Source: a virus. From it: 64,000 nt of DNA. The notes beneath the pieces were generated by a model. The model did no database searches. It was given only the letters and a program-made list of their open reading frames with translations, and was not told where the DNA came from. Location of the stretch: the IMG/VR virus record IMGVR_UViG_3300036944_000550, positions 32,536 to 96,535 of that record; one strand, 5' to 3'. This document shows positions 2,869-33,176 of the stretch, one piece after another. Position 1 is the first letter of the stretch. The number at the start of each line of letters is the position of its first letter. Made by a program: the position numbers and the translations under genes.

Positions 2869-3468
2869 ATGATGCTTGGGACAAACACGGATATTAAAAA
2901 AATAACTGAGAATTGGATTCCAGAAAATTCTGTAGGTGCAGAAATCGGTATCTGGAGAGGTGATGCGTCAAAACAACTTTTGACAAAATGTAGTTATCTA
3001 CATATGATAGATCCATATAATATCAGCGTATATGAAAATACTACTGATTGGTTGAATATGGGGTACGAAAAAATATTAGAGAGATATTCTTCATTAGTAG
3101 GTTCGACAGACCCAGCAGATTTTCAAAAATTTTATGACGATCTCTATCTTGACGTTTGTGAACAATTTAAAGATTTACCTGCAACTATCCATCGAATGAC
3201 TTCTCGGGATTGGTTTTCTTCTTATACTGGAGAAAAATTGGACTGGATTTATATCGATGGTGATCATAGTTATGAGGGTGTGATGGAAGATTTGGTATCT
3301 AGTCTTGATGTGGTAAAACAAAATGGATTAATTTTTGTTGATGATTATTCAATACATAATAGTTTACATCCTGGAGTTAGAGCAGCAGTCAGAGATTTCT
3401 GCTATGAGAGAAAATTAAAATTCAAGAGATTATATCTCAATACGTGCATGATAGAATTGGGGACATAA
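2869..3468 (+). CDS. Class I SAM-dependent methyltransferase (Methyltransf_24-like)
   Basis: GAEIGIWRG motif I, LDWIYIDGDHSYEGV, GLIFVDDY, HPGV. Confidence 0.8.
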   Translation: MMLGTNTDIKKITENWIPENSVGAEIGIWRGDASKQLLTKCSYLHMIDPYNISVYENTTDWLNMGYEKILERYSSLVGSTDPADFQKFYDDLYLDVCEQFKDLPATIHRMTSRDWFSSYTGEKLDWIYIDGDHSYEGVMEDLVSSLDVVKQNGLIFVDDYSIHNSLHPGVRAAVRDFCYERKLKFKRLYLNTCMIELGT

Positions 3469-6092: not shown

Positions 6093-7871
6093 TTATACGG
6101 TGCGAACCCAAAGTTTTATGGTCGATACAGTTTCTTTAGTTGCGATCACTGTCGCACCCGAGAAGTTGCTTGAATATGTTCCACTAAAGTTACTGGCATA
6201 ATTTCCTGTATAGTTTCTAGAACCTGAATAATATCCAGTGTAGTTTCCTGTAAAGAATCCAGTGTAGTTACCAGTATATGTTGCAGTTCCTGCAAAGAAC
6301 CCAGTATAAAACCCTGTAAAGAACCCAGTGTAAGTACCCGTATATGTTGCAGTTCCTGCGTAAGCACCTGTAAAGAATCCAGTATAATTACCAGAATATG
6401 TTCCAGTGTAAGTTGCTGGTCCAACATAGTTACCAGTAAAGAATCCTAAGTATGTACCGAGATATGTTCCATTATAGTTACCTGCATAGTTTCTAGAACC
6501 AGAATAGGTGCCGAGATAGTTGCCGGAGAAGTTACCTAGATAGTTACCTGAGAAGTTGCCCGTATAAGTTCCAAGATAGTTACCCTGGAAATTTCCATTA
6601 AGGAATCCGCCAAAGAATCGTGCATATGTTCCGAGATAGTTACCAGAGAAACCTTGCGAGTAAGTTCCTGTGAAGTTTCGCGAATATGTTCCGAGATAGT
6701 TTCCAGCATAGTTACCTGCATAGTTTCTAGAACCAGCATAATTTCCTGAGTAGTTTTTACTGAAGTTACTGGTGTAGTTACCAGAATAACCAGCAGTCCC
6801 TACAAAGTTACCAACATAGTTTCCACTGAAACCTCTCGAGTAAGTACCTGAATAGTTTGCTGGACCAACATAACCGCCACTAAAGTTGTTTGCGAATGCT
6901 CCAGAATATGCTGCGGAATAGTTTGCTGGACCCACGAAACCGCCACTAAAATTGTTTGCGAATGCCCCAGTATATGTCCCAGCATATGCTGCAGAATAGT
7001 TTCTTGAACCTGAGAAGGTGCCGAGATAGTTACCCGAGAAGTTACCCAGATAGTTCTGTGGTGTTACTTGCTCTCTGGTATCAGCAAACTCATCACCCAT
7101 CGCAACCCAAGTACCACTCACTGGTGCTGTAGATTGAACCTTATATGTGCCGATTCCCGTGTCAATAATTCTGTTTCTAAAACTCGGAAGCATCTGTAGG
7201 ATTTCAGAAGATGACATTTCTTTGACATCTTTGGTATCAATCAGTTTTAGTGGTTTGAGATTAGAGTCTGACAATGTAGTTGCAGCAGTTTTCTGCCATA
7301 GATATGTTACTGTGTTGCCGCCATTAGCAACATCAGTTAATGTGTATCGAGCAACCCATGTACCACCTGATGGAGCAGTTGGTTGTAGTTTATATTGCCC
7401 AGCAGTATATGTGGTCTCGGTGATCATCGCATTGATTGCATAATCTAAGATTTCACTATCAATTTGACCATCGGACATTTCTTTAATACCATCGTCATAT
7501 TTCAACGGACGATTGGTAATGCTTTCTGCCGCAGCAGCAGTAACCTGTTTTGCAGTGTATGTGACAACATTCGCATTTGCCATGTATGTACCAGAAGCGT
7601 CCGTATAAGCCGTACCAACTGCATCTGCTGGATGAGTTCCTGTCGCCGCTTGAAGATCTGTGTCAACAAACGTGCCGATCGAAGTACCAGAACCACTGTT
7701 GTTTGTTGTGATGTTGATTTCAGCAGTGCCAGTACCATCTGAGTTTGCGCCGAAAGAAACTGTCAGAGTTTGTGCAATGTAATTCTTTACTTCATCGACA
7801 GACATCTGTTGTAGACCCTGCCAGTTTACAGCAGAAACTGGTGTTGCCGAAGATTTATTTCTCAAAACCAT
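6093..7871 (-). CDS. Virion fibre-like protein with (Y/F)xG(N/T) tetrapeptide repeats
   Basis: Duplicated N-terminal globular module, about 320 aa of aromatic-Gly repeats, C-terminus KETVSTIKLWVRTV. Paralogue of 7874-9907, within the structural gene block. Confidence 0.65.
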   Translation of the reverse strand: MVLRNKSSATPVSAVNWQGLQQMSVDEVKNYIAQTLTVSFGANSDGTGTAEINITTNNSGSGTSIGTFVDTDLQAATGTHPADAVGTAYTDASGTYMANANVVTYTAKQVTAAAAESITNRPLKYDDGIKEMSDGQIDSEILDYAINAMITETTYTAGQYKLQPTAPSGGTWVARYTLTDVANGGNTVTYLWQKTAATTLSDSNLKPLKLIDTKDVKEMSSSEILQMLPSFRNRIIDTGIGTYKVQSTAPVSGTWVAMGDEFADTREQVTPQNYLGNFSGNYLGTFSGSRNYSAAYAGTYTGAFANNFSGGFVGPANYSAAYSGAFANNFSGGYVGPANYSGTYSRGFSGNYVGNFVGTAGYSGNYTSNFSKNYSGNYAGSRNYAGNYAGNYLGTYSRNFTGTYSQGFSGNYLGTYARFFGGFLNGNFQGNYLGTYTGNFSGNYLGNFSGNYLGTYSGSRNYAGNYNGTYLGTYLGFFTGNYVGPATYTGTYSGNYTGFFTGAYAGTATYTGTYTGFFTGFYTGFFAGTATYTGNYTGFFTGNYTGYYSGSRNYTGNYASNFSGTYSSNFSGATVIATKETVSTIKLWVRTV

Positions 7872-7873
7872 GT

Positions 7874-9907
7874 TTATGCTGTCCTTATCCACAATTTAAC
7901 AGATGACACTGTTTCTTTAGTTGCTTGTATTGTTGCGCCGGAATATGTTCCTATAAAGTTATTTATATAACTCCCCAAGTAATTTCCAGTGTAATTTGTT
8001 GTTCCAGTGTAAAAACCAGTATATGCTATTCCTACGCCAGTGAAATACCCTGTATAGGTTCCAGTGTACGCTGTTCCAGTAAAGGTTGCAGAATATGGAG
8101 TTCCTGGAGTTCCGCTGAAAAACCCTGAGTACGCTGGTCCTGGACCAGTATAGAATCCAGTATATGAAGTTCCTGGACCACTGAAAAACCCTGAGTACGC
8201 TGGTCCTGGACCAGTATAGAATCCAGTATATGAAGTTCCTGGACCTGTAGGTCCAGTATAAGTTCCTGCATACGGCTGACCATATGATGGACCTGCTGGA
8301 TTCGAGTATGATGGACCTGCTGGATTCGAATATGATGGACCAGCTGGGTTTGATCCTGCAGGTGTAGAATATGATGGCGGTCCCGCATAGAATCCAGTGT
8401 AATATGCCTTGTCATAACCAGTGACAAAATACAGGGAAGGGCCTTGGAAATTTCCTGCATAACCTAAATTTGATGCATAGAATCCAGCATAATTTTGTGG
8501 TGCCGAAAACTCTCCTATGTAAACTTCTCCAGGTTCATTTGGAGCGATAGGTATCTCAAAGTATCCAGTATAGTTGAGACCTGGACCTGTATAAAACCCA
8601 GTATAGTTTGCAGCAAAGATACCACTAGTATAATATACTACCTGTTCTCTTTGGGGCGGAGGACCATCGTAATTCCCTCCATAACTGCCAGTATATGGTG
8701 TTGAATATGATGGACCTGCTGGATTATTACCTGCTGGATTCGAGTATGATGGACCTGCTGGATTCGAATATGATGGACCAGCAGGTGTAGAATAAAATGG
8801 ACCACCTATGTAATTACCAGTATAATTTGCTCCTGGATTTGCTGGACCCGTATAAGTTAATCCAGTATAATTAGTAGTACTAGAAAAATTACCAGTATAA
8901 TTGCTGGACCCTGTATAGGTTGTTCCAGTATATGCTAAAGGAGAGGAAAAAGATCCAGTATAATTGCTGGAAGTACTATAGGTTGTTCCAGTATATGGGG
9001 AACTATAAGCAGGTCCAGTAAAATTACTGCTGTAATTTCCTGATGCAGAATAAGGCGCAGAATATGGAAAAGGACCAGTATAATTACCAGTATAATTACC
9101 AGTATAATTACTACTGTAATTACCAGCGTAGTTCTGTGGCGTTACTTCTTCGCGAGTATCCGTGAATGTGTTACCTGTTTGAACCCAAGTGCCGCCACTA
9201 GGCGCATCTGATTGGATTTTATAAGTTCCGATACCTGTTTCAATAATTCTATTTCTAAAGACTGGAAGCATCTGTTCGATTTCTGCTTCAGTCATCTGCT
9301 TGCAGTTACCACCATTAAACGTTCTTAGTGGTGTGAGATCCGCTGTTGGTAGTGAAGATGAAACTGTTTTCTGCCACAGATATGTTACAGTGTTTCCACC
9401 TTGTGCTGTATCTGTTAATGTATACCGCGAAACCCAAGTTCCGCCTGATGGTGCAGTTGCTTGCAGTTTATATTGTCCAGCAGTATATGTTGATTCAGAT
9501 ACCATTGCATTAATACACAGATCCATTGTGCTATCAATGTCACCATCTACCATTTCTTCTAGACGAGAATCCCATGCTAATGGTCTGTTGGTAATACTTT
9601 CCACTGCTGCAGCAGTAACCTGTTTAGCAGTGTATGTTGTTGTAGAAACTGCACCAGTAGCAGGATGCGTTCCGATAGATTCGGTTCTTGTCGTATCGAC
9701 AAACGTACCGATCAAAGTTCCTGCACCTGAGTTATTTGTAGTAATATTAATTTCAGCAGTTCCAGTACCATCTGTTACTGCAGCAAACTTTTCTGTGATA
9801 ACATTAGCAATATAATTTTTTACCTCTGCATCGGTCATGGTCTGCAAACCGCTGATGTTTGCAGAAGTGATTGGGGAACCTGTTGCCTTGACCTTTAGAG
9901 GGTTCAT
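7874..9907 (-). CDS. Virion fibre-like protein with YTG and GPSYSNPA repeats
   Basis: N-terminal ~260 aa and the C-terminus closely match 6093-7871, with a long Y/T/G/S/P repeat region between them. Confidence 0.65.
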   Translation of the reverse strand: MNPLKVKATGSPITSANISGLQTMTDAEVKNYIANVITEKFAAVTDGTGTAEINITTNNSGAGTLIGTFVDTTRTESIGTHPATGAVSTTTYTAKQVTAAAVESITNRPLAWDSRLEEMVDGDIDSTMDLCINAMVSESTYTAGQYKLQATAPSGGTWVSRYTLTDTAQGGNTVTYLWQKTVSSSLPTADLTPLRTFNGGNCKQMTEAEIEQMLPVFRNRIIETGIGTYKIQSDAPSGGTWVQTGNTFTDTREEVTPQNYAGNYSSNYTGNYTGNYTGPFPYSAPYSASGNYSSNFTGPAYSSPYTGTTYSTSSNYTGSFSSPLAYTGTTYTGSSNYTGNFSSTTNYTGLTYTGPANPGANYTGNYIGGPFYSTPAGPSYSNPAGPSYSNPAGNNPAGPSYSTPYTGSYGGNYDGPPPQREQVVYYTSGIFAANYTGFYTGPGLNYTGYFEIPIAPNEPGEVYIGEFSAPQNYAGFYASNLGYAGNFQGPSLYFVTGYDKAYYTGFYAGPPSYSTPAGSNPAGPSYSNPAGPSYSNPAGPSYGQPYAGTYTGPTGPGTSYTGFYTGPGPAYSGFFSGPGTSYTGFYTGPGPAYSGFFSGTPGTPYSATFTGTAYTGTYTGYFTGVGIAYTGFYTGTTNYTGNYLGSYINNFIGTYSGATIQATKETVSSVKLWIRTA
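8115..8245. repeat. 66-bp-period tandem duplication encoding GPGTSYTGFYTGPGPAYSGFFS twice
   Basis: Identical 65-bp copies start at 8115 and 8181. Confidence 0.9.
8283..8782. repeat. Two blocks of 24-bp GPSYSNPA repeats (~8283-8344 and ~8706-8782)
   Basis: gatggacctgctggattcga(g/a)tat units, with about 54 bp identical between the two blocks. Confidence 0.85.
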
Positions 9908-25554: not shown

Positions 25555-28500
25555 TTACCAAGGAGTGAATTTACCAGGACTTATAATTTTAGTACTACCA
25601 TTAGACTGTAATTTAGCGGTTCCGTTCGCAGTTCCGCTTCGTTTCTGTCCATTGTAAAGAACCCAACCAATATGAATCCATGCTGTTTTTCCACTCGCAG
25701 TTTCTAAGAGAATTTGATCACATTTCGGTAAAGAAGTTGCAATGTAATTTGCGATTTCAATCATCTTTTTACGATTATCTGCAAATCCCCACTGAATATC
25801 TACTGCGGCATATCTATGTGCACTTTTCGTATCATGTCGGAAACCAGAGTTGATTCTAAAACCTGGATATCTTTCTCTCAATGGTTCTAGGATGTTCAAG
25901 CACAAACATCTATAATTTTGAATAATATCCCATTGACTGATTACACCCGACCCACCCTTCAAAGATCTTGGATATGAAATAAATTGACTCAACTTACGAG
26001 GGTAGAATGCCTTTGAAAAGAAATCATCCAAAACATAATTATCAGACAATTGAATGTTGCCTGAAATTTTACCACCACCAAGTGCAGGCATTGGTTTCTT
26101 AGTTTTGTAGAAGATATTACATCCAGGAATAGCATCAGGAACCTTGCCGAAATCACCAGTTACCGCAGAACTACCATCATCTGCCGCTGTTCCTGGACCT
26201 CCTGGTTGCGATGGATCTGACTTATCGACACAATCTTCAGTACCACTATCTGGTTCATCTGGTACGTCATTCTCAGTATTATCCGGAACACCTTGTGATC
26301 CACCACTTACGTTTGCTGCTGCAGCACCGCCGACATATTGTGATTTACCAGTTACAGATTTACTGACAGGTTTTTCAACAGTCTTGATAGTTGACAATGG
26401 AGCAGCGACTGCACATACAGCTTCTGCAGCAGAAGCTGGTTCGGTCACAGATGCCGTTGTAGTTCCAGCAACTGGTAGATTATGTGTACTTCCACCATTG
26501 GTGCCAGTGTCTGTTCCAGTTGCCCGAAGATTGGTACTACCAGCATTCAGAGTTGTTACATTTACTGTGGTTACGTCAAGAGTTGGAGTGTCAATCGGCG
26601 AAGAAGTTACAAGAGGTGCCTTTAGACTGATATTACCTGCACCTTCAACATTAACAGCAGCACCAGATTTTATTTCAGTTGCTGCACCTGATTTAGTTTT
26701 TATTGCTGCATCAGTGCATAAGTTTGTATCGCCTGTTGAATGATTGAAGAATGACCCTGCCGATTTAATATGAGTATCCGCTTTAGAGGTGACATTAACA
26801 CCTGCATCAGAGGTCAAATTAAACTTGCCTGTGACATCGGTTGTGAAATTGCCTTTCGAATCAATGTCGATATCACCAACATTTTCTAGAGACATTAATC
26901 CACCATTTCTTGCATAAATTCCATCGGCAACAGATAATGATAATCTACCCGCGATGTTAACGTCGACATCATTATGAATGTCCATAGAGACTTTACCATG
27001 CATTGTCAAATTTGTGTCGCTCATGATGATCACATTACAGTTTCCAGCAACGTGCACATTCGCCATACCTTCTATTAAAATGTATCCATTCTTGTCTAGA
27101 ATTGTGTATCCATCACCAACAATCTTAGTTACTTTGGTTCCGTTCGGTCCAATCTCGTCAAATGTTCCGGATCTATGTGCCCAGTTAAGTCTTTCAGAAC
27201 CAGGAGTGTCATCAATTTCCATAGCATGACCTGATTCAGAACCAAACACTTTATTGAATGGATATTGTGCATTATATGGTGATTCTGGTTGCGCCCAAGT
27301 AACACCATTTCTGCCTGCTGTTTGGACTTCACGTTTTCGAGATGCATTTCTTGCAGCAGGGGATGCTCCTGCGCTTAATGTTTCCCTATTCCCCGAAGAA
27401 CTCTTAGGACTCTTACCAATTTGGGGAGAGTTTACACCTGTTGCTAACGGATTTGTATCAGGTTTATTTACTGATGATCTTAATGGATATACGCTGGTAG
27501 GATCTTTAAACCCCTTCGTGTCATCTTGTTGAGATGCAGGCAATACATCTGTGTTTTTGGGTTGATTGTTTGATCTGAAAGTATCAATTGAATTGTCAGT
27601 ATTAACTTGGTCGCTTACTGCAGCATTTTGTACCTGAGTTGATGGTGTGAATGATACATCGGGTTCTTCTGGTTTGACTTCAAGTGCTATCTTCTCAGAT
27701 GTTGTTTCTTTAGTTCGCAGAGTTCCATCTGCATTCACAGTTTCAACAACAGTAGTCTTAGTTCCATCAGGATTAGTTATTGCTGTTGTTGTTATGGTGT
27801 TACCAGCAGCGTCGAAAATTGATGTTATTGTTGGATCAATAATATTGAGTTGTTTTTTAATTGGAGCAATATCTGTTTCAAAAGAATCAACAATCTGCGT
27901 CTTTGCAGATTGTAGAAGTTGGTATTTTTCTTCAAGTCCAGTAATTTTTGCTGCTTGAATTACTTTATCTAATTGTGCAGTAAGACTTGTGATAGACACT
28001 GGTCTTGATACTGCAATTTCTTTACCATCATATAAAAATCTGCCTGCAATATCAGTTCCTGCTGCTACATATTCTATTACGAGACTTCCAATAGTATTTT
28101 CTACTGCCGCCAACCCACCTTCGATTGGAGGCAGAACAGGAACATCTGGTTTCGCCACACTAATTTCTAATGGGGTAGCAGTAACAGAGTTATACCCAAT
28201 GTCATACCAATACTTTGATGTAATACCTGAAGTATCTTTTTTGATAATACCATTAGCATAATTTGCTGCAGTATCATAGTTGATACATAATGCTACTGAT
28301 AGTAATCCAGCAACAATATCCTTATCAGTTGAATCGTTTATTATTCTTGCATTATACAGCAGACTGTAAATGAAATTTAAATAAGCATATGCGATTTCGT
28401 CTTGGTATGATTTATTTGAAAGGATGTCAAATGCTGTTTCTATGCGTACATTGACAGGAATTCCAGTAAGCGCATAAGTCAAGAAATAATATTGGGCGCT

Positions 28501-28875
28501 ATTTTTTGCTTCGATTTTAGATTCAGCAAAATCTAACTGGGTACCATATTTTTCTTTTGCTGCTTCATAGTATGATTTTCGTGTTTCTAACTTTTCTGGA
28601 CCCTCTGGGCGATCAATTAATGTATTGTCAATATAATCTCTAGCAAGGATACCAAGCCAACTCGCATCAATTAGTTGATTGATTGTTAATCTGTATGCAC
28701 CATACTCGCCACCATCGTGAACCTTCGACCATATATCCTTGCTTCCTGCTACAGGATATTGCTCTTTGATTGCATTCTGGCACGCAATAAGAAGTTTTGA
28801 GATATCTTCTGGAGTCAAACTCCCAATATCTGTGCTAAAACTTTCTAATGTAGTTTCATATGTCATAGTAATCAT
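25555..28875 (-). CDS. gp5: gp5 C-terminal part: lysozyme-like N-domain, gp5 beta-helix spike and C-terminal M15-family Zn peptidase
   Basis: YPFNKVFGSESGHAMEIDDTPGSERL...HRSGT gp5 signature and beta-helix repeats; INSGFR..SAH..AVDI..WIHIG M15 motif. Confidence 0.75.
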   Translation of the reverse strand: MITMTYETTLESFSTDIGSLTPEDISKLLIACQNAIKEQYPVAGSKDIWSKVHDGGEYGAYRLTINQLIDASWLGILARDYIDNTLIDRPEGPEKLETRKSYYEAAKEKYGTQLDFAESKIEAKNSAQYYFLTYALTGIPVNVRIETAFDILSNKSYQDEIAYAYLNFIYSLLYNARIINDSTDKDIVAGLLSVALCINYDTAANYANGIIKKDTSGITSKYWYDIGYNSVTATPLEISVAKPDVPVLPPIEGGLAAVENTIGSLVIEYVAAGTDIAGRFLYDGKEIAVSRPVSITSLTAQLDKVIQAAKITGLEEKYQLLQSAKTQIVDSFETDIAPIKKQLNIIDPTITSIFDAAGNTITTTAITNPDGTKTTVVETVNADGTLRTKETTSEKIALEVKPEEPDVSFTPSTQVQNAAVSDQVNTDNSIDTFRSNNQPKNTDVLPASQQDDTKGFKDPTSVYPLRSSVNKPDTNPLATGVNSPQIGKSPKSSSGNRETLSAGASPAARNASRKREVQTAGRNGVTWAQPESPYNAQYPFNKVFGSESGHAMEIDDTPGSERLNWAHRSGTFDEIGPNGTKVTKIVGDGYTILDKNGYILIEGMANVHVAGNCNVIIMSDTNLTMHGKVSMDIHNDVDVNIAGRLSLSVADGIYARNGGLMSLENVGDIDIDSKGNFTTDVTGKFNLTSDAGVNVTSKADTHIKSAGSFFNHSTGDTNLCTDAAIKTKSGAATEIKSGAAVNVEGAGNISLKAPLVTSSPIDTPTLDVTTVNVTTLNAGSTNLRATGTDTGTNGGSTHNLPVAGTTTASVTEPASAAEAVCAVAAPLSTIKTVEKPVSKSVTGKSQYVGGAAAANVSGGSQGVPDNTENDVPDEPDSGTEDCVDKSDPSQPGGPGTAADDGSSAVTGDFGKVPDAIPGCNIFYKTKKPMPALGGGKISGNIQLSDNYVLDDFFSKAFYPRKLSQFISYPRSLKGGSGVISQWDIIQNYRCLCLNILEPLRERYPGFRINSGFRHDTKSAHRYAAVDIQWGFADNRKKMIEIANYIATSLPKCDQILLETASGKTAWIHIGWVLYNGQKRSGTANGTAKLQSNGSTKIISPGKFTPW

Positions 28876-28878
28876 TGG

Positions 28879-29835
28879 TTAAACCTTATACTTGTTTTTA
28901 TAGAAGGCAAATTTATTTTTTCTGTCGGGGAGTCCAGTATCACCACCATTGATCTGTTGTGTTACATAATTGATATCATTCCATTTATTATTTTTACCAA
29001 TTTTTGCTCTTTCCTTATTGAAATACCAAATAATAAGTTCTGCAGCAATTTCTTTTTGCGCAACTAACTCTGGGTTATTTACTAAATCTTTTCCAATGTA
29101 TTTTCCTGCGTTTCTGTAAGCAGATTTCCATGTGTGCTGTAGAAATCCTCTTCCTCTATATTTTGAACCATCGCCTGCAGTAGTATTACCATACTGTCTG
29201 GCTCTGGTAGGATTATCTCCAGTGATATCATATTTTAGAAAATAACTTTCTTTTCCTACTTCTTTTAATTTTCTAAAACCGCCTGTTTCATGATTACATT
29301 GTGCCATAATCATCGCCTTGGCGATTGGAGTATACCCATTTATTTTTTTGCCATTAAGATCTAACCAAGCTTCTAACCAAGACTCTACATTTTTTGCGTC
29401 GCCAGAAGGTTGAACCACATCACCAATATCACCACCAGAATCAGAGTTCCCGCTACCTGTTGCAGCATCACCAGAAGATCCAGATCCTTCGCTCGGAGAA
29501 CAATCATTTGAATTTAATCCTCCTGGAATAGCACCAACTGTTCCAAAAAACATAGGGTGCTGTCCATTCTCACCGTCAGCAAAAAATCCAACTACCCATG
29601 AACCTTCGACTGCACCTGTAGGAGACCATCCAACACCCGAAGTTCCTGCTGAGTTGGCAGGCATTATTGGCATCGCCCAAGGAAGTTCTTCCGTTGGTAA
29701 ACCAATATTATCTTCTGTGTGGTAACCAATAATTCTTACACGACATCTACCCAAACGTAATGGATCGTTGCGATCTTCGACAACCCCAAACCACCAATAG
29801 AAGTTTGCATTATTATTAGATGTAATATTATCCAT
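28879..29835 (-). CDS. gp5: gp5 N-terminal OB-fold fused to a GH19-type muramidase
   Basis: WWFGVVEDRNDPLRLGRCRVRIIGYH, LPWA, GSWVVGFFADG; GH19 motifs AQCNHETGG, YRGRGFLQHT, INGG. Confidence 0.85.
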   Translation of the reverse strand: MDNITSNNNANFYWWFGVVEDRNDPLRLGRCRVRIIGYHTEDNIGLPTEELPWAMPIMPANSAGTSGVGWSPTGAVEGSWVVGFFADGENGQHPMFFGTVGAIPGGLNSNDCSPSEGSGSSGDAATGSGNSDSGGDIGDVVQPSGDAKNVESWLEAWLDLNGKKINGYTPIAKAMIMAQCNHETGGFRKLKEVGKESYFLKYDITGDNPTRARQYGNTTAGDGSKYRGRGFLQHTWKSAYRNAGKYIGKDLVNNPELVAQKEIAAELIIWYFNKERAKIGKNNKWNDINYVTQQINGGDTGLPDRKNKFAFYKNKYKV

Positions 29836-31931: not shown

Positions 31932-33176
31932 TTAGTATCCCTTCTCAATTCTGTCAGTAGTCAGAGTTTCCAATTCAGAGAATTGTAATCTAACAAATGC
32001 TTCAGTCGGGCAACCATTTGAGAATGTAGTAAAACCTTCTGCACCATAATCAATAACCATATCTGTCAGTACACAGTTTGATATTTTTCTAACATATGTG
32101 TTTTCAGCGCCATTGTGATAATAGATTATCATAAATTCTGATGGATACGTTAGGAAAAGTCCATTCGGACTCATGGTTGGATGCATGTGCATTGTAAATA
32201 ATTCGAGTATACCAGATTTTCCACCTGGACGACCAAAAACCATTTCTGCCTCGTCAGCATTTCTCGGCGCAAATCTATAGTCAAACGAGAATTTTCTAAA
32301 TCCCATAGATCTAAATAATTGCTCCTTGTATGGATTTTCTACTTTCTTAGAAGTTGCTTCAAGAGCATTAGTAAATTGATCAAATCCAGCAATATTTGCG
32401 ATTCGTCCTGCCTTTCTTACGAGAAAATCAGCAGTTTCTGATCCTTCTGTAACCAATCCAGATAATGACGCTTTTCCTGAAGCTAGACCACCGACGAGTG
32501 CACCAAGATCTGCTGTCTCATAGTTTGCATTATACCCTGATCCAATTTTTTCTGGTATATGAAGAATAATTTCGTCGCTACCAATTACTAGGCGTTGTTC
32601 TCCAGCGATACCACTAGCAGCAACACCTGCTGCAGCGCCCACACCAGCACCAATGATTACTCCACCAAGTCCTGCTGCCAATTTAGTAGCAATAGAAACT
32701 GGTCCGCCTGTTACATTTGGATTCGGATTTACTGTATTACCACCATTTGCCTTTAAACGATTGCCGAGAGATGTTGCGGCACCAATTCCAGCAGCTGCTC
32801 CCAACCCTGCACCAATAATTGCACCTGCTGCTCCCACTGCCACTTTACCATTTTCTGGATCAACTCTATTTTGGTCCGTCTGGTCGAAAATTTTTCCACC
32901 ACCACTTGCCAATAATTCTTTACCTCGTTTTGTTCCTTCACGAACAAGAGGGTAGAAAACAACATAGTGTGGAAACTCTTCAGATTCCCCAATATCTATC
33001 GGGTAACGACGTTGTCCATCTACGTCTCGTGGTGTTTCTAGAAAATTAACAGGCGCAGTTCCTCTGCTAAACCGACTTTCTTTTTTTGGTTCTGGTGCTG
33101 TAGTTGCAGCAGCAGGTGCAGTTGTTCCTGGAGCAGGAGTTTGCGTAGGGGCTGCGGGTGCAGGAGTTAATGCCAT
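31932..33176 (-). CDS. gp48: Baseplate tail tube cap gp48
   Basis: NPYKEQLFRSMGFRKFSFDYRFAPRNADEA, YPSEF, CVLTDM.IDY, LQFSELE. Confidence 0.85.
   Translation of the reverse strand: MALTPAPAAPTQTPAPGTTAPAAATTAPEPKKESRFSRGTAPVNFLETPRDVDGQRRYPIDIGESEEFPHYVVFYPLVREGTKRGKELLASGGGKIFDQTDQNRVDPENGKVAVGAAGAIIGAGLGAAAGIGAATSLGNRLKANGGNTVNPNPNVTGGPVSIATKLAAGLGGVIIGAGVGAAAGVAASGIAGEQRLVIGSDEIILHIPEKIGSGYNANYETADLGALVGGLASGKASLSGLVTEGSETADFLVRKAGRIANIAGFDQFTNALEATSKKVENPYKEQLFRSMGFRKFSFDYRFAPRNADEAEMVFGRPGGKSGILELFTMHMHPTMSPNGLFLTYPSEFMIIYYHNGAENTYVRKISNCVLTDMVIDYGAEGFTTFSNGCPTEAFVRLQFSELETLTTDRIEKGY

Follow-up and report, generated by a model that had tools for sequence, protein, structure and literature searches.

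A gene in a 64,000-nucleotide (nt) stretch of IMG/VR virus record IMGVR_UViG_3300036944_000550 (positions 32,536 to 96,535 of the record; hereafter, the window) encodes a protein that very probably consists of a base and one very long, fold-back two-stranded β-hairpin. The window carries the structural module of a T4-like myovirus, and the gene is read from its minus strand. Residue numbers throughout are those of a 599-amino-acid (aa) frame with a GTG start. In the proposed architecture, the chain would exit the base at Y281, extend for about 148 residues as (Y/F)xG(N/T) tetrapeptides, turn at F426-F-G-G-F-L-N432 and return antiparallel, to add TVSTIKLWVRT as the final strand that the base otherwise lacks. 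The two arms would run alongside each other in a constant register; on one face of the ribbon every aromatic residue (Tyr or Phe) would be opposed by a Gly of its partner, and the other face would consist of small polar residues (Asn, Thr, Ser) with an occasional Leu-Leu pair. The base would be the attachment end and the FFGGF turn the distal end. The gene and its parts are as follows.

6093..7871, minus strand: gene of the putative fold-back fibre protein (homologue starts, ESM Atlas, AAGGA motif)
7053..7871, minus strand: base domain, residues 8-280 (AlphaFold2 model and hhalign)
6618..7052, minus strand: predicted outbound (N) arm, residues 281-425 (repeat parse)
6597..6617, minus strand: predicted turn or tip, residues 426-432, FFGGFLN, with GG at 428-429 (family midpoint motif)
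6153..6596, minus strand: predicted return (C) arm, residues 433-580 (repeat parse)
6096..6152, minus strand: C-terminal tail, residues 581-599, TVIATKETVSTIKLWVRTV (AlphaFold2 model, homology to base repeat 2, family conservation)

Mirror symmetry of the two arms

The layout of residues 281-580 was obtained with a dynamic-programming parse. The region resolves into (Y/F)xG(N/T) tetrapeptides, with a period of 4 and Gly at position 3, and ten six-residue units (hexamers), a pattern confirmed to lie far beyond chance. Its 300 residues include 64 Gly, 47 Tyr, 38 Asn, 36 Thr, 31 Phe, 31 Ser and 25 Ala; no acidic residue, no His and no HxH motif is found among them. The N arm opens with three plain tetrapeptides and continues with FSGSRN (293-298), five plain tetrapeptides, FVGPAN (319-324), four, YVGPAN (341-346), four, FVGTAG (363-368), four, and YAGSRN (385-390). 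Nine plain tetrapeptides, the sequence FGGFLNGN and seven further tetrapeptides separate this inner GSRN unit from that of the C arm, which reads YSGSRN (463-468), five, YVGPAT (489-494), four, YAGTAT (511-516), four, FAGTAT (533-538), four, YSGSRN (555-560) and five, and is followed by the tail. The order of hexamers given in a preliminary description of this sequence was returned exactly by the parse, together with its central YARFFGGFLNG (residues 423-433) and its tally, in each arm, of 17 plain tetrapeptides from one GSRN unit to the other. The out-and-back course proposed there agrees with the family data (see below) in direction; its length of some 160 residues does not, the arms measuring about 148 (147-152).

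Within the window protein, the hexamers are spaced 5, 4, 4 and 4 tetrapeptides apart, in sequence order, in both arms. Taken as direct repeats, the arms share 25 of 30 aromatic identities at a parallel offset of 22; at the mirror offset, 21 of 26 are the same and 5 differ. Since the parallel and the mirror fit are about equal in this protein, the case for mirror symmetry rests on the family and not on the single sequence. The parallel match weighs against a hairpin. It would suit a symmetry of purely historical origin, the C arm having arisen as a straight copy of its N-terminal counterpart and the whole region being a flexible, low-complexity Tyr/Gly/Asn linker that lacks fixed pairing. Direct DNA similarity between the arms, which is weak and again tells against the hairpin, would fit such a history, as would recent 66-bp tandem duplications and a low AlphaFold2 (AF2) confidence of the kind met in disordered regions (see below).

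At least 951 relatives were recognized in a large protein collection (within 8000 candidates scored), with 609 among cluster representatives and 327 coding stretches in IMG/VR. Informative names and Pfam domains are lacking in all of the relatives found. The turn motif, [YF][YF]GG[YF] ([GSA]G in distant relatives), occurs once per protein, halfway from where the base ends to the tail. The lengths of the N and C arms are tightly correlated (r = 0.97) among 34 database homologues that have a single turn motif, and C minus N is exactly 4 in 22 of these. When IMG/VR loci were added, the difference was exactly 4 in 63 of 111 distinct repeat regions with one turn motif, and within one residue of 4 in 74% of them, a share that would be 1.4% if the motif were placed at random. 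Arms of 36 different length combinations, in which the N arm has 30 residues or more, follow the rule C = N + 4. The arms of homologues, whose balance had been suggested as a check on the hairpin, are therefore balanced.

Exceptions to the rule speak against the hairpin. Nineteen of the 111 regions have a C-minus-N difference outside the range 2 to 6. In three of them the value is extreme (-258, +184 and +185) and may stem from a motif mismatch; the others lie 6-73 residues off the rule, and in three of these the deviation equals one 22-residue module exactly. Deviations of 6-23 residues are seen in about a tenth of the distinct relatives. Homologues that depart by 8-22 residues are P0011, P0037, P0017, P0018, P0020, P0021, P0010 and P0022 (examples: -18 in P0011 and P0037, +23 in P0017, P0018 and P0020, +12 in P0022); these could owe their unequal arms to recent insertions or deletions in one arm, looped-out modules or assembly errors. 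Two other relatives, P0006 and P0029, are without a tip and their outer units are still matched, which is the expected product of one tip-spanning deletion between mirrored units. The repeat region is about 60 residues long at the lower end of the family's range (P0029, 339 aa) and about 360 at the upper end (P0005, 720 aa).

Hexamers are mirrored as well. In the window protein, the partners (N arm first) are found at the following distances from the turn: 39 and 38 for the inner SR pair, 61 (TA) and 64 (PA), 83 (PA) and 86 (TA), 105 (PA) and 108 (TA), and 131 and 130 for the outer SR pair; the fixed staggers of these two hexamer classes account for the spacing reading 5, 4, 4, 4 in both arms. 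Hexamer positions were also compared in a manner independent of the centre, by measuring distance from the base in one arm and from the tail in the other across 63 non-redundant architectures. Two sharp offset peaks emerged (100/323 and 54/323), and the paired types were SR-SR (62), TA-PA (46), PA-TA (32), PA-PA (1) and TA-TA (0). Thus PA faces TA (78 versus 1), whereas a direct duplicate would give PA-PA, so that direct copying is contradicted. In other subfamilies a Lys-containing unit is paired with a Thr-Ser unit, and one relative pairs PR with TD. In the proposed register each hexamer shifts the Tyr/Gly phase by two residues and would be tolerated only with a matching unit at equal height in the other arm (SR-SR, PA-TA).

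Covariation between the arms was measured in 38 representatives with less than half of their 6-mers in common, the arms being numbered outward from the two Gly of the turn. Whether N-arm position n holds Tyr or Phe goes with the choice made at C-arm position n+5 (Tyr-Tyr 319, Phe-Phe 104, mixed 29; mutual information 0.51 bit), and Phe-Phe pairs are depleted at n+1, n-3 and n+9. The best parallel offset yields 0.10 bit. The mirror symmetry claimed at the protein level in the preliminary description is thereby borne out in the family at single-residue resolution, for the hexamers and for the Tyr/Phe pattern alike. A second group of couplings falls at c = n+3: Leu-Leu pairs are enriched 7.5-fold, Lys-Ser pairs 3.3-fold, Ala-Ala pairs also, and where position 3 is occupied by a residue other than Gly, the aromatic residue facing it tends to be Phe and not Tyr (about 4-fold enrichment). 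The strong coupling diagonals lie at -5 on the aromatic face and at -1 on the other face; on geometric grounds, such a pair of diagonals is expected for an n+3 register, because opposite diagonals come close on the two faces of a right-twisted two-stranded ribbon. In the window protein the n+3 register would create 55 aromatic-Gly pairs, or 63 aromatic-Gly/Ala pairs in that register class. Residue i is most likely paired with residue 860-i, as in L420-L440, A345-A515 and A367-A493.

This assignment does not accommodate every coupling. At offset +1, repeat position 4 of one arm is coupled to repeat position 4 of the other (0.43 bit), a misfit to n+3 that might arise from a second neighbouring strand. 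An n+5 register, with Tyr opposite Tyr, is a possible alternative; like the misfit, it detracts from the pairing proposed here. A register of n+1 is disfavoured, there being no Tyr/Phe coupling at that offset.

At the level of the family, a direct-repeat explanation was rejected: parallel offsets are uninformative, and PA pairs with TA, not with PA. The historical explanation as a whole, flexible linker included, is highly improbable. It conflicts with the information carried by mirror as opposed to parallel offsets, with the PA-TA complementarity, and with the residue-exact covariation of arm lengths in at least 36 length classes; disordered linkers keep no such constraints.

No DNA inverted repeat was found, and none could encode a protein palindrome; it follows that the palindrome is kept by selection on the protein. 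The window gene holds a paired module gain, consisting of the GPAN pair in the N arm and a mirrored GTAT pair in the C arm; the GTAT modules (6234-6287 and 6300-6353) are 81% alike. The neighbouring paralogue follows the same mirror rule at the level of zones: measured from the base, its PAGPS(Y)S(N) repeats fall at distances of 115-141 residues (N arm) and 117-140 residues (C arm). Its tip is a non-repeat segment of about 100 aa with charged residues. The corresponding features are:

6850..6976, minus strand: 66-bp (22-aa) tandem duplication in the N arm, comprising the two GPAN modules (90% identity)
7874..9907, minus strand: paralogue, 677 aa (base and tail in common, longer arms, tip insert of about 100 aa)

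Tandem repeats of 66 bp and 24 bp are also present in the paralogue (8089-8347 and 8729-8804).

Base, tail and structure models

The base is built of three tandem homologous ββαββ repeats, spanning residues ~8-125, 126-211 and 212-280. Pairwise hhalign comparisons gave probabilities of 99% for repeats 2 and 3 (E 1.4e-18), 96% for repeats 1 and 3 and 88% for repeats 1 and 2. The tail is shared with the paralogue (TIQATKETVSSVKLWIRTA) and strongly conserved in the family, T581 and L594 being invariant and W595 and R597 present in at least 90%. When residues 281-578 were deleted in silico and repeat 3 plus tail was aligned globally to repeat 2 with hhalign, the tail fell on the last strand of repeat 2 (TVTYLWQKTA) with a probability of 99%. 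In repeat 2 the equivalent loop has only a few residues, and AF2 draws its flanking strands (E178-187 and E194-203) as a β-hairpin. From the homology of the tail to the last strand of repeat 2, we strongly infer that the 300-residue repeat region is an insertion in the last β-hairpin loop of base repeat 3. The earlier guess that the C-terminus completes the N-terminal base thus receives support.

A 76-aa insert occupies the hairpin loop of base repeat 1 in P0003, P0033 and other relatives (columns ~124-200 of alignment A2). Its position is equivalent to that of the fibre in repeat 3, which marks the base loops as insertion sites.

The arms could in principle pair between chains, the N arm of one subunit lying on the C arm of another in a swapped dimer or filament. 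All of the mirror statistics would be satisfied equally by such an arrangement, which is nevertheless unlikely: a tight Gly-Gly turn is conserved at the exact midpoint and both ends of the insert lie in one small domain, so that a hairpin within one chain is the simpler reading.

The AF2 monomer model (58-sequence alignment) is confident for base and tail only, with a predicted local distance difference test (pLDDT) score mostly above 90 in the base and of 85-96 in the tail. Fold searches returned weak matches of the base to MABP and MACPF C-terminal β-prisms, a three-sheet fold with pseudo-threefold symmetry (Z 5.8-7.0 over 110-123 aligned residues), all of them below the tool's safe level of Z 8. 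The same four β-prism entries head both fold searches, the next unrelated entry in the second being 5a3k at Z 2.6, and in both the alignments extend to the last residue of the protein.

The AF2 model of the window protein's arms counts against a long hairpin. For residues 283-575 the pLDDT is below 50, and C-arm residues 475-571 are drawn, still below 50, as short strands about every 11 residues in a solenoid-like manner. This portion of the low-confidence model weakly matches leucine-rich-repeat and pentapeptide-type solenoids (Z 3.5-6). Such strands, together with the presence of a 22-residue module period, would accord with a β-solenoid or β-helix in which each module (four tetrapeptides and one hexamer) forms one coil and the shaft is a stack of coils. 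That arrangement is very unlikely. Coil length is not fixed among relatives, in which the number of plain tetrapeptides between hexamers varies from 0 to 33; some have hexamers 0, 1, 2, 3 or 5 units apart, and others have 28-33 tetrapeptides per arm and no hexamer. Moreover, a one-way path cannot return the tail to the base, and the equal arms, the central GG turn and the mirrored Tyr/Phe pattern would be left unexplained.

A short homologue, P0044 (376 aa, arms of 43 and 47 residues), was modelled by AF2 with a strand at 300-308, Gly309-Gly310 and a strand at 311-320, the two Gly being the only non-strand residues in between; its base strands 254-280 and 342-374 have ends that fit i+j = 622, the register derived from covariation. 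Here too the pLDDT is below 50. The AF2 models may be called compatible with the hairpin, and carry little weight. A complex prediction with three copies of residues 355-502 (alignment A1) scored 0.00 with an uncertain partner fold and speaks neither for nor against binding.

Database searches gave no convincing match. Foldseek gave no match at E ≤0.001 in the PDB (the top row, T4 gp11 at E 0.66, was not counted) or in BFVD (a T4 gp37 fragment appeared only at E 0.063). No chain was retrieved at E up to 1 when a family profile was run against PDB sequences. Pfam produced no significant match (best E 0.11; up to E 1, only an irrelevant match to FlgO), no PHROG family was matched, and the ESM Atlas contained unnamed viral clusters only. 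In the literature searched, no description was found of such a fold-back fibre or of a tetrapeptide-repeat cyanophage fibre.

Assembly and relation to known fibres

The phage shafts known so far are trimeric coiled coils, triple β-helices, β-spirals or collagen-like helices. The family would add another shaft design, in which the hairpin loop of a small domain is stretched to a ribbon of hundreds of residues. The range of hosts open to a phage is set by its fibres. Among known designs the T4 gp37 needle comes nearest, and the topology is held in common with it; the needle domain of this long-tail-fibre tip protein is PDB entry 2XGF. Both are parts of T4-type phages' fibres, actual or predicted, and in gp37 the chain runs out to the distal tip and back antiparallel, leaving both ends proximal. 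Comparative sequence analysis suggests the same out-and-back course here. The distal tip of gp37 carries the binding site, and the paralogue described above has a tip domain. Unlike the present protein, with its arms of about 148 residues made of tetrapeptides and its lack of His, the gp37 needle is short (about 150 Å by 25 Å by electron microscopy), trimeric, and held together by iron bound to His-x-His motifs. There is no sequence or profile match between the two, and the base described here is a threefold repeat within one chain.

Two modes of assembly were considered for the hairpin. In one, the shaft would be a single-chain, free-standing two-stranded "tyrosine ladder" ribbon (up to ~50 nm) emanating from the hairpin loop of a three-repeat base that imitates a trimer, a possibility that we put forward tentatively. 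Were it correct, this would be a phage fibre that is no trimer at all, and its length would be tuned by paired gains of 22-residue modules and by tip-spanning deletions. In the other, three out-and-back chains would contribute six strands to a narrow antiparallel barrel whose core would be lined by Tyr and Gly in alternation. This trimeric needle is a sub-form of the hairpin reading, differing in assembly only, and is conceivable while falling short of probable. Phage fibres are usually trimers; the gp37 needle has an arrangement of six antiparallel strands from three chains running out and back (PMC9659904). A trimer would bury the Tyr/Gly face, and the coupling peak at offset +1 could mean a second neighbouring strand. 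Against it, the base is already a threefold tandem repeat in one chain and resembles a pseudo-trimer built from a monomer, and the needle would lack His and the HxH motif.

Other short-repeat proteins are further removed. Solenoid-type fibres (pentapeptide repeats, the gp5/gp12 triple β-helix, the S16 gp38 polyglycine-II sandwich) are likewise elongated and rich in short Gly repeats; the period here, however, is 4 and not 5, 8 or 3, coil length is unfixed and the chain returns to its start. Fold matches to such proteins are weak (Z 3.7-4.8) and concern a poorly predicted part of the model. A collagen-like phage fibre has the period of Gly-X-Y triplets, not the period of 4 found here, and the Pfam pentapeptide repeat family differs in period and gives no match. 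As judged from sequence, then, the solenoid, collagen-like and pentapeptide families would fail in their defining features, in keeping with the initial view that this protein is unlike triple β-helix or collagen-type fibres. Antiparallel sheets that dispense with a conventional core are known from tryptophan zippers, from cross-strand pairs that show "aromatic rescue of glycine" and from OspA. In these hairpins and single-layer sheets, rings lie across the neighbouring strand, and in the window protein the most likely register sets each Tyr or Phe against a Gly in the opposite arm. They comprise 12-100 residues in total, against some 300 in the one hairpin predicted here.

Natural length variants and the apparent pairing rules (Tyr/Phe with Gly, SR with SR, PA with TA, diagonal Tyr-Tyr and Phe-Phe) would offer a system for studying folding and register in long two-stranded sheets, and possibly a scaffold of programmable length. 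A palindrome at the protein level, which cannot arise directly by DNA duplication, can apparently be read as a contact map where structure prediction fails.

As to function, the protein appears to be a virion appendage of a T4-like phage, in view of the position of its gene after the wedge genes, its conserved pairing with a paralogue that has a tip insert, and a match in phage C48C1. The gene directly follows gp5, gp6, gp7-like and gp8-like baseplate genes. The only cultured match (tblastn) lies in a giant hypothetical protein of the Kyanoviridae phage C48C1 (OQ984149.1, 141011-151054), whose gene adjoins annotated tail fibre and tail assembly chaperone genes; the record holds 13 separate tblastn matches in total. 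A point on the other side is that no cultured phage with proteomics carries the protein (the tblastn search found C48C1 only). Fully extended, the ribbon could be up to about 50 nm long, and it probably projects from the baseplate region. Contact with the host surface would then be made by its uncharged Tyr/Asn/Thr surface or by the inserted tip domain of the paralogue. One may speculate that the Tyr/Asn/Thr surface binds host surface polysaccharide.

Genomic setting

The source record is a 96.5-kb IMG/VR fragment with a completeness estimate of 59%, and the two paralogues are the only repeat proteins of this type in it. Minus-strand genes of the window follow one another in the order tail-tube cap, gp5-like hub with lysozyme, gp6, gp7-like and gp8-like wedge proteins, a 2105-aa protein, a 160-aa protein and the two paralogous repeat proteins (7874-9907 and 6093-7892). 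The cultured phages nearest in gp6 (33-38% identical) are Synechococcus phage BUCT-ZZ01, Methylophilales phage Melnitz and Pelagibacter phage HTVC008M.

The open reading frame (ORF) at 6093-7892 (minus strand) encodes 599 aa from the GTG at 7892 and 592 aa from the ATG at 7871. The former, chosen by the ORF-listing program, would overlap the paralogue by 19 nt. The ATG, at residue 8, is likely the true start, since three observations point to it: homologues begin at MVLRNK, i.e. at residue 8, the ESM Atlas record contains the sequence from that residue onward, and an AAGGA motif lies upstream. The ATG is located 2 nt past the TAA codon of the paralogue.

The Y-x-G-N repeat yields 19 N-x-S/T sequons in residues 281-580 (window 6153-7052). 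The notion of a "glycosylation island" at this locus finds no support in Pfam, a search of nine neighbouring ORFs having returned one methyltransferase (2869-3468, PF13578) and no glycosyltransferase model. Finally, the gp5-like hub/lysozyme signal (25555-29835, minus strand) is divided between neighbouring ORFs (318 aa and 1106 aa), each with a match to phrog_430.

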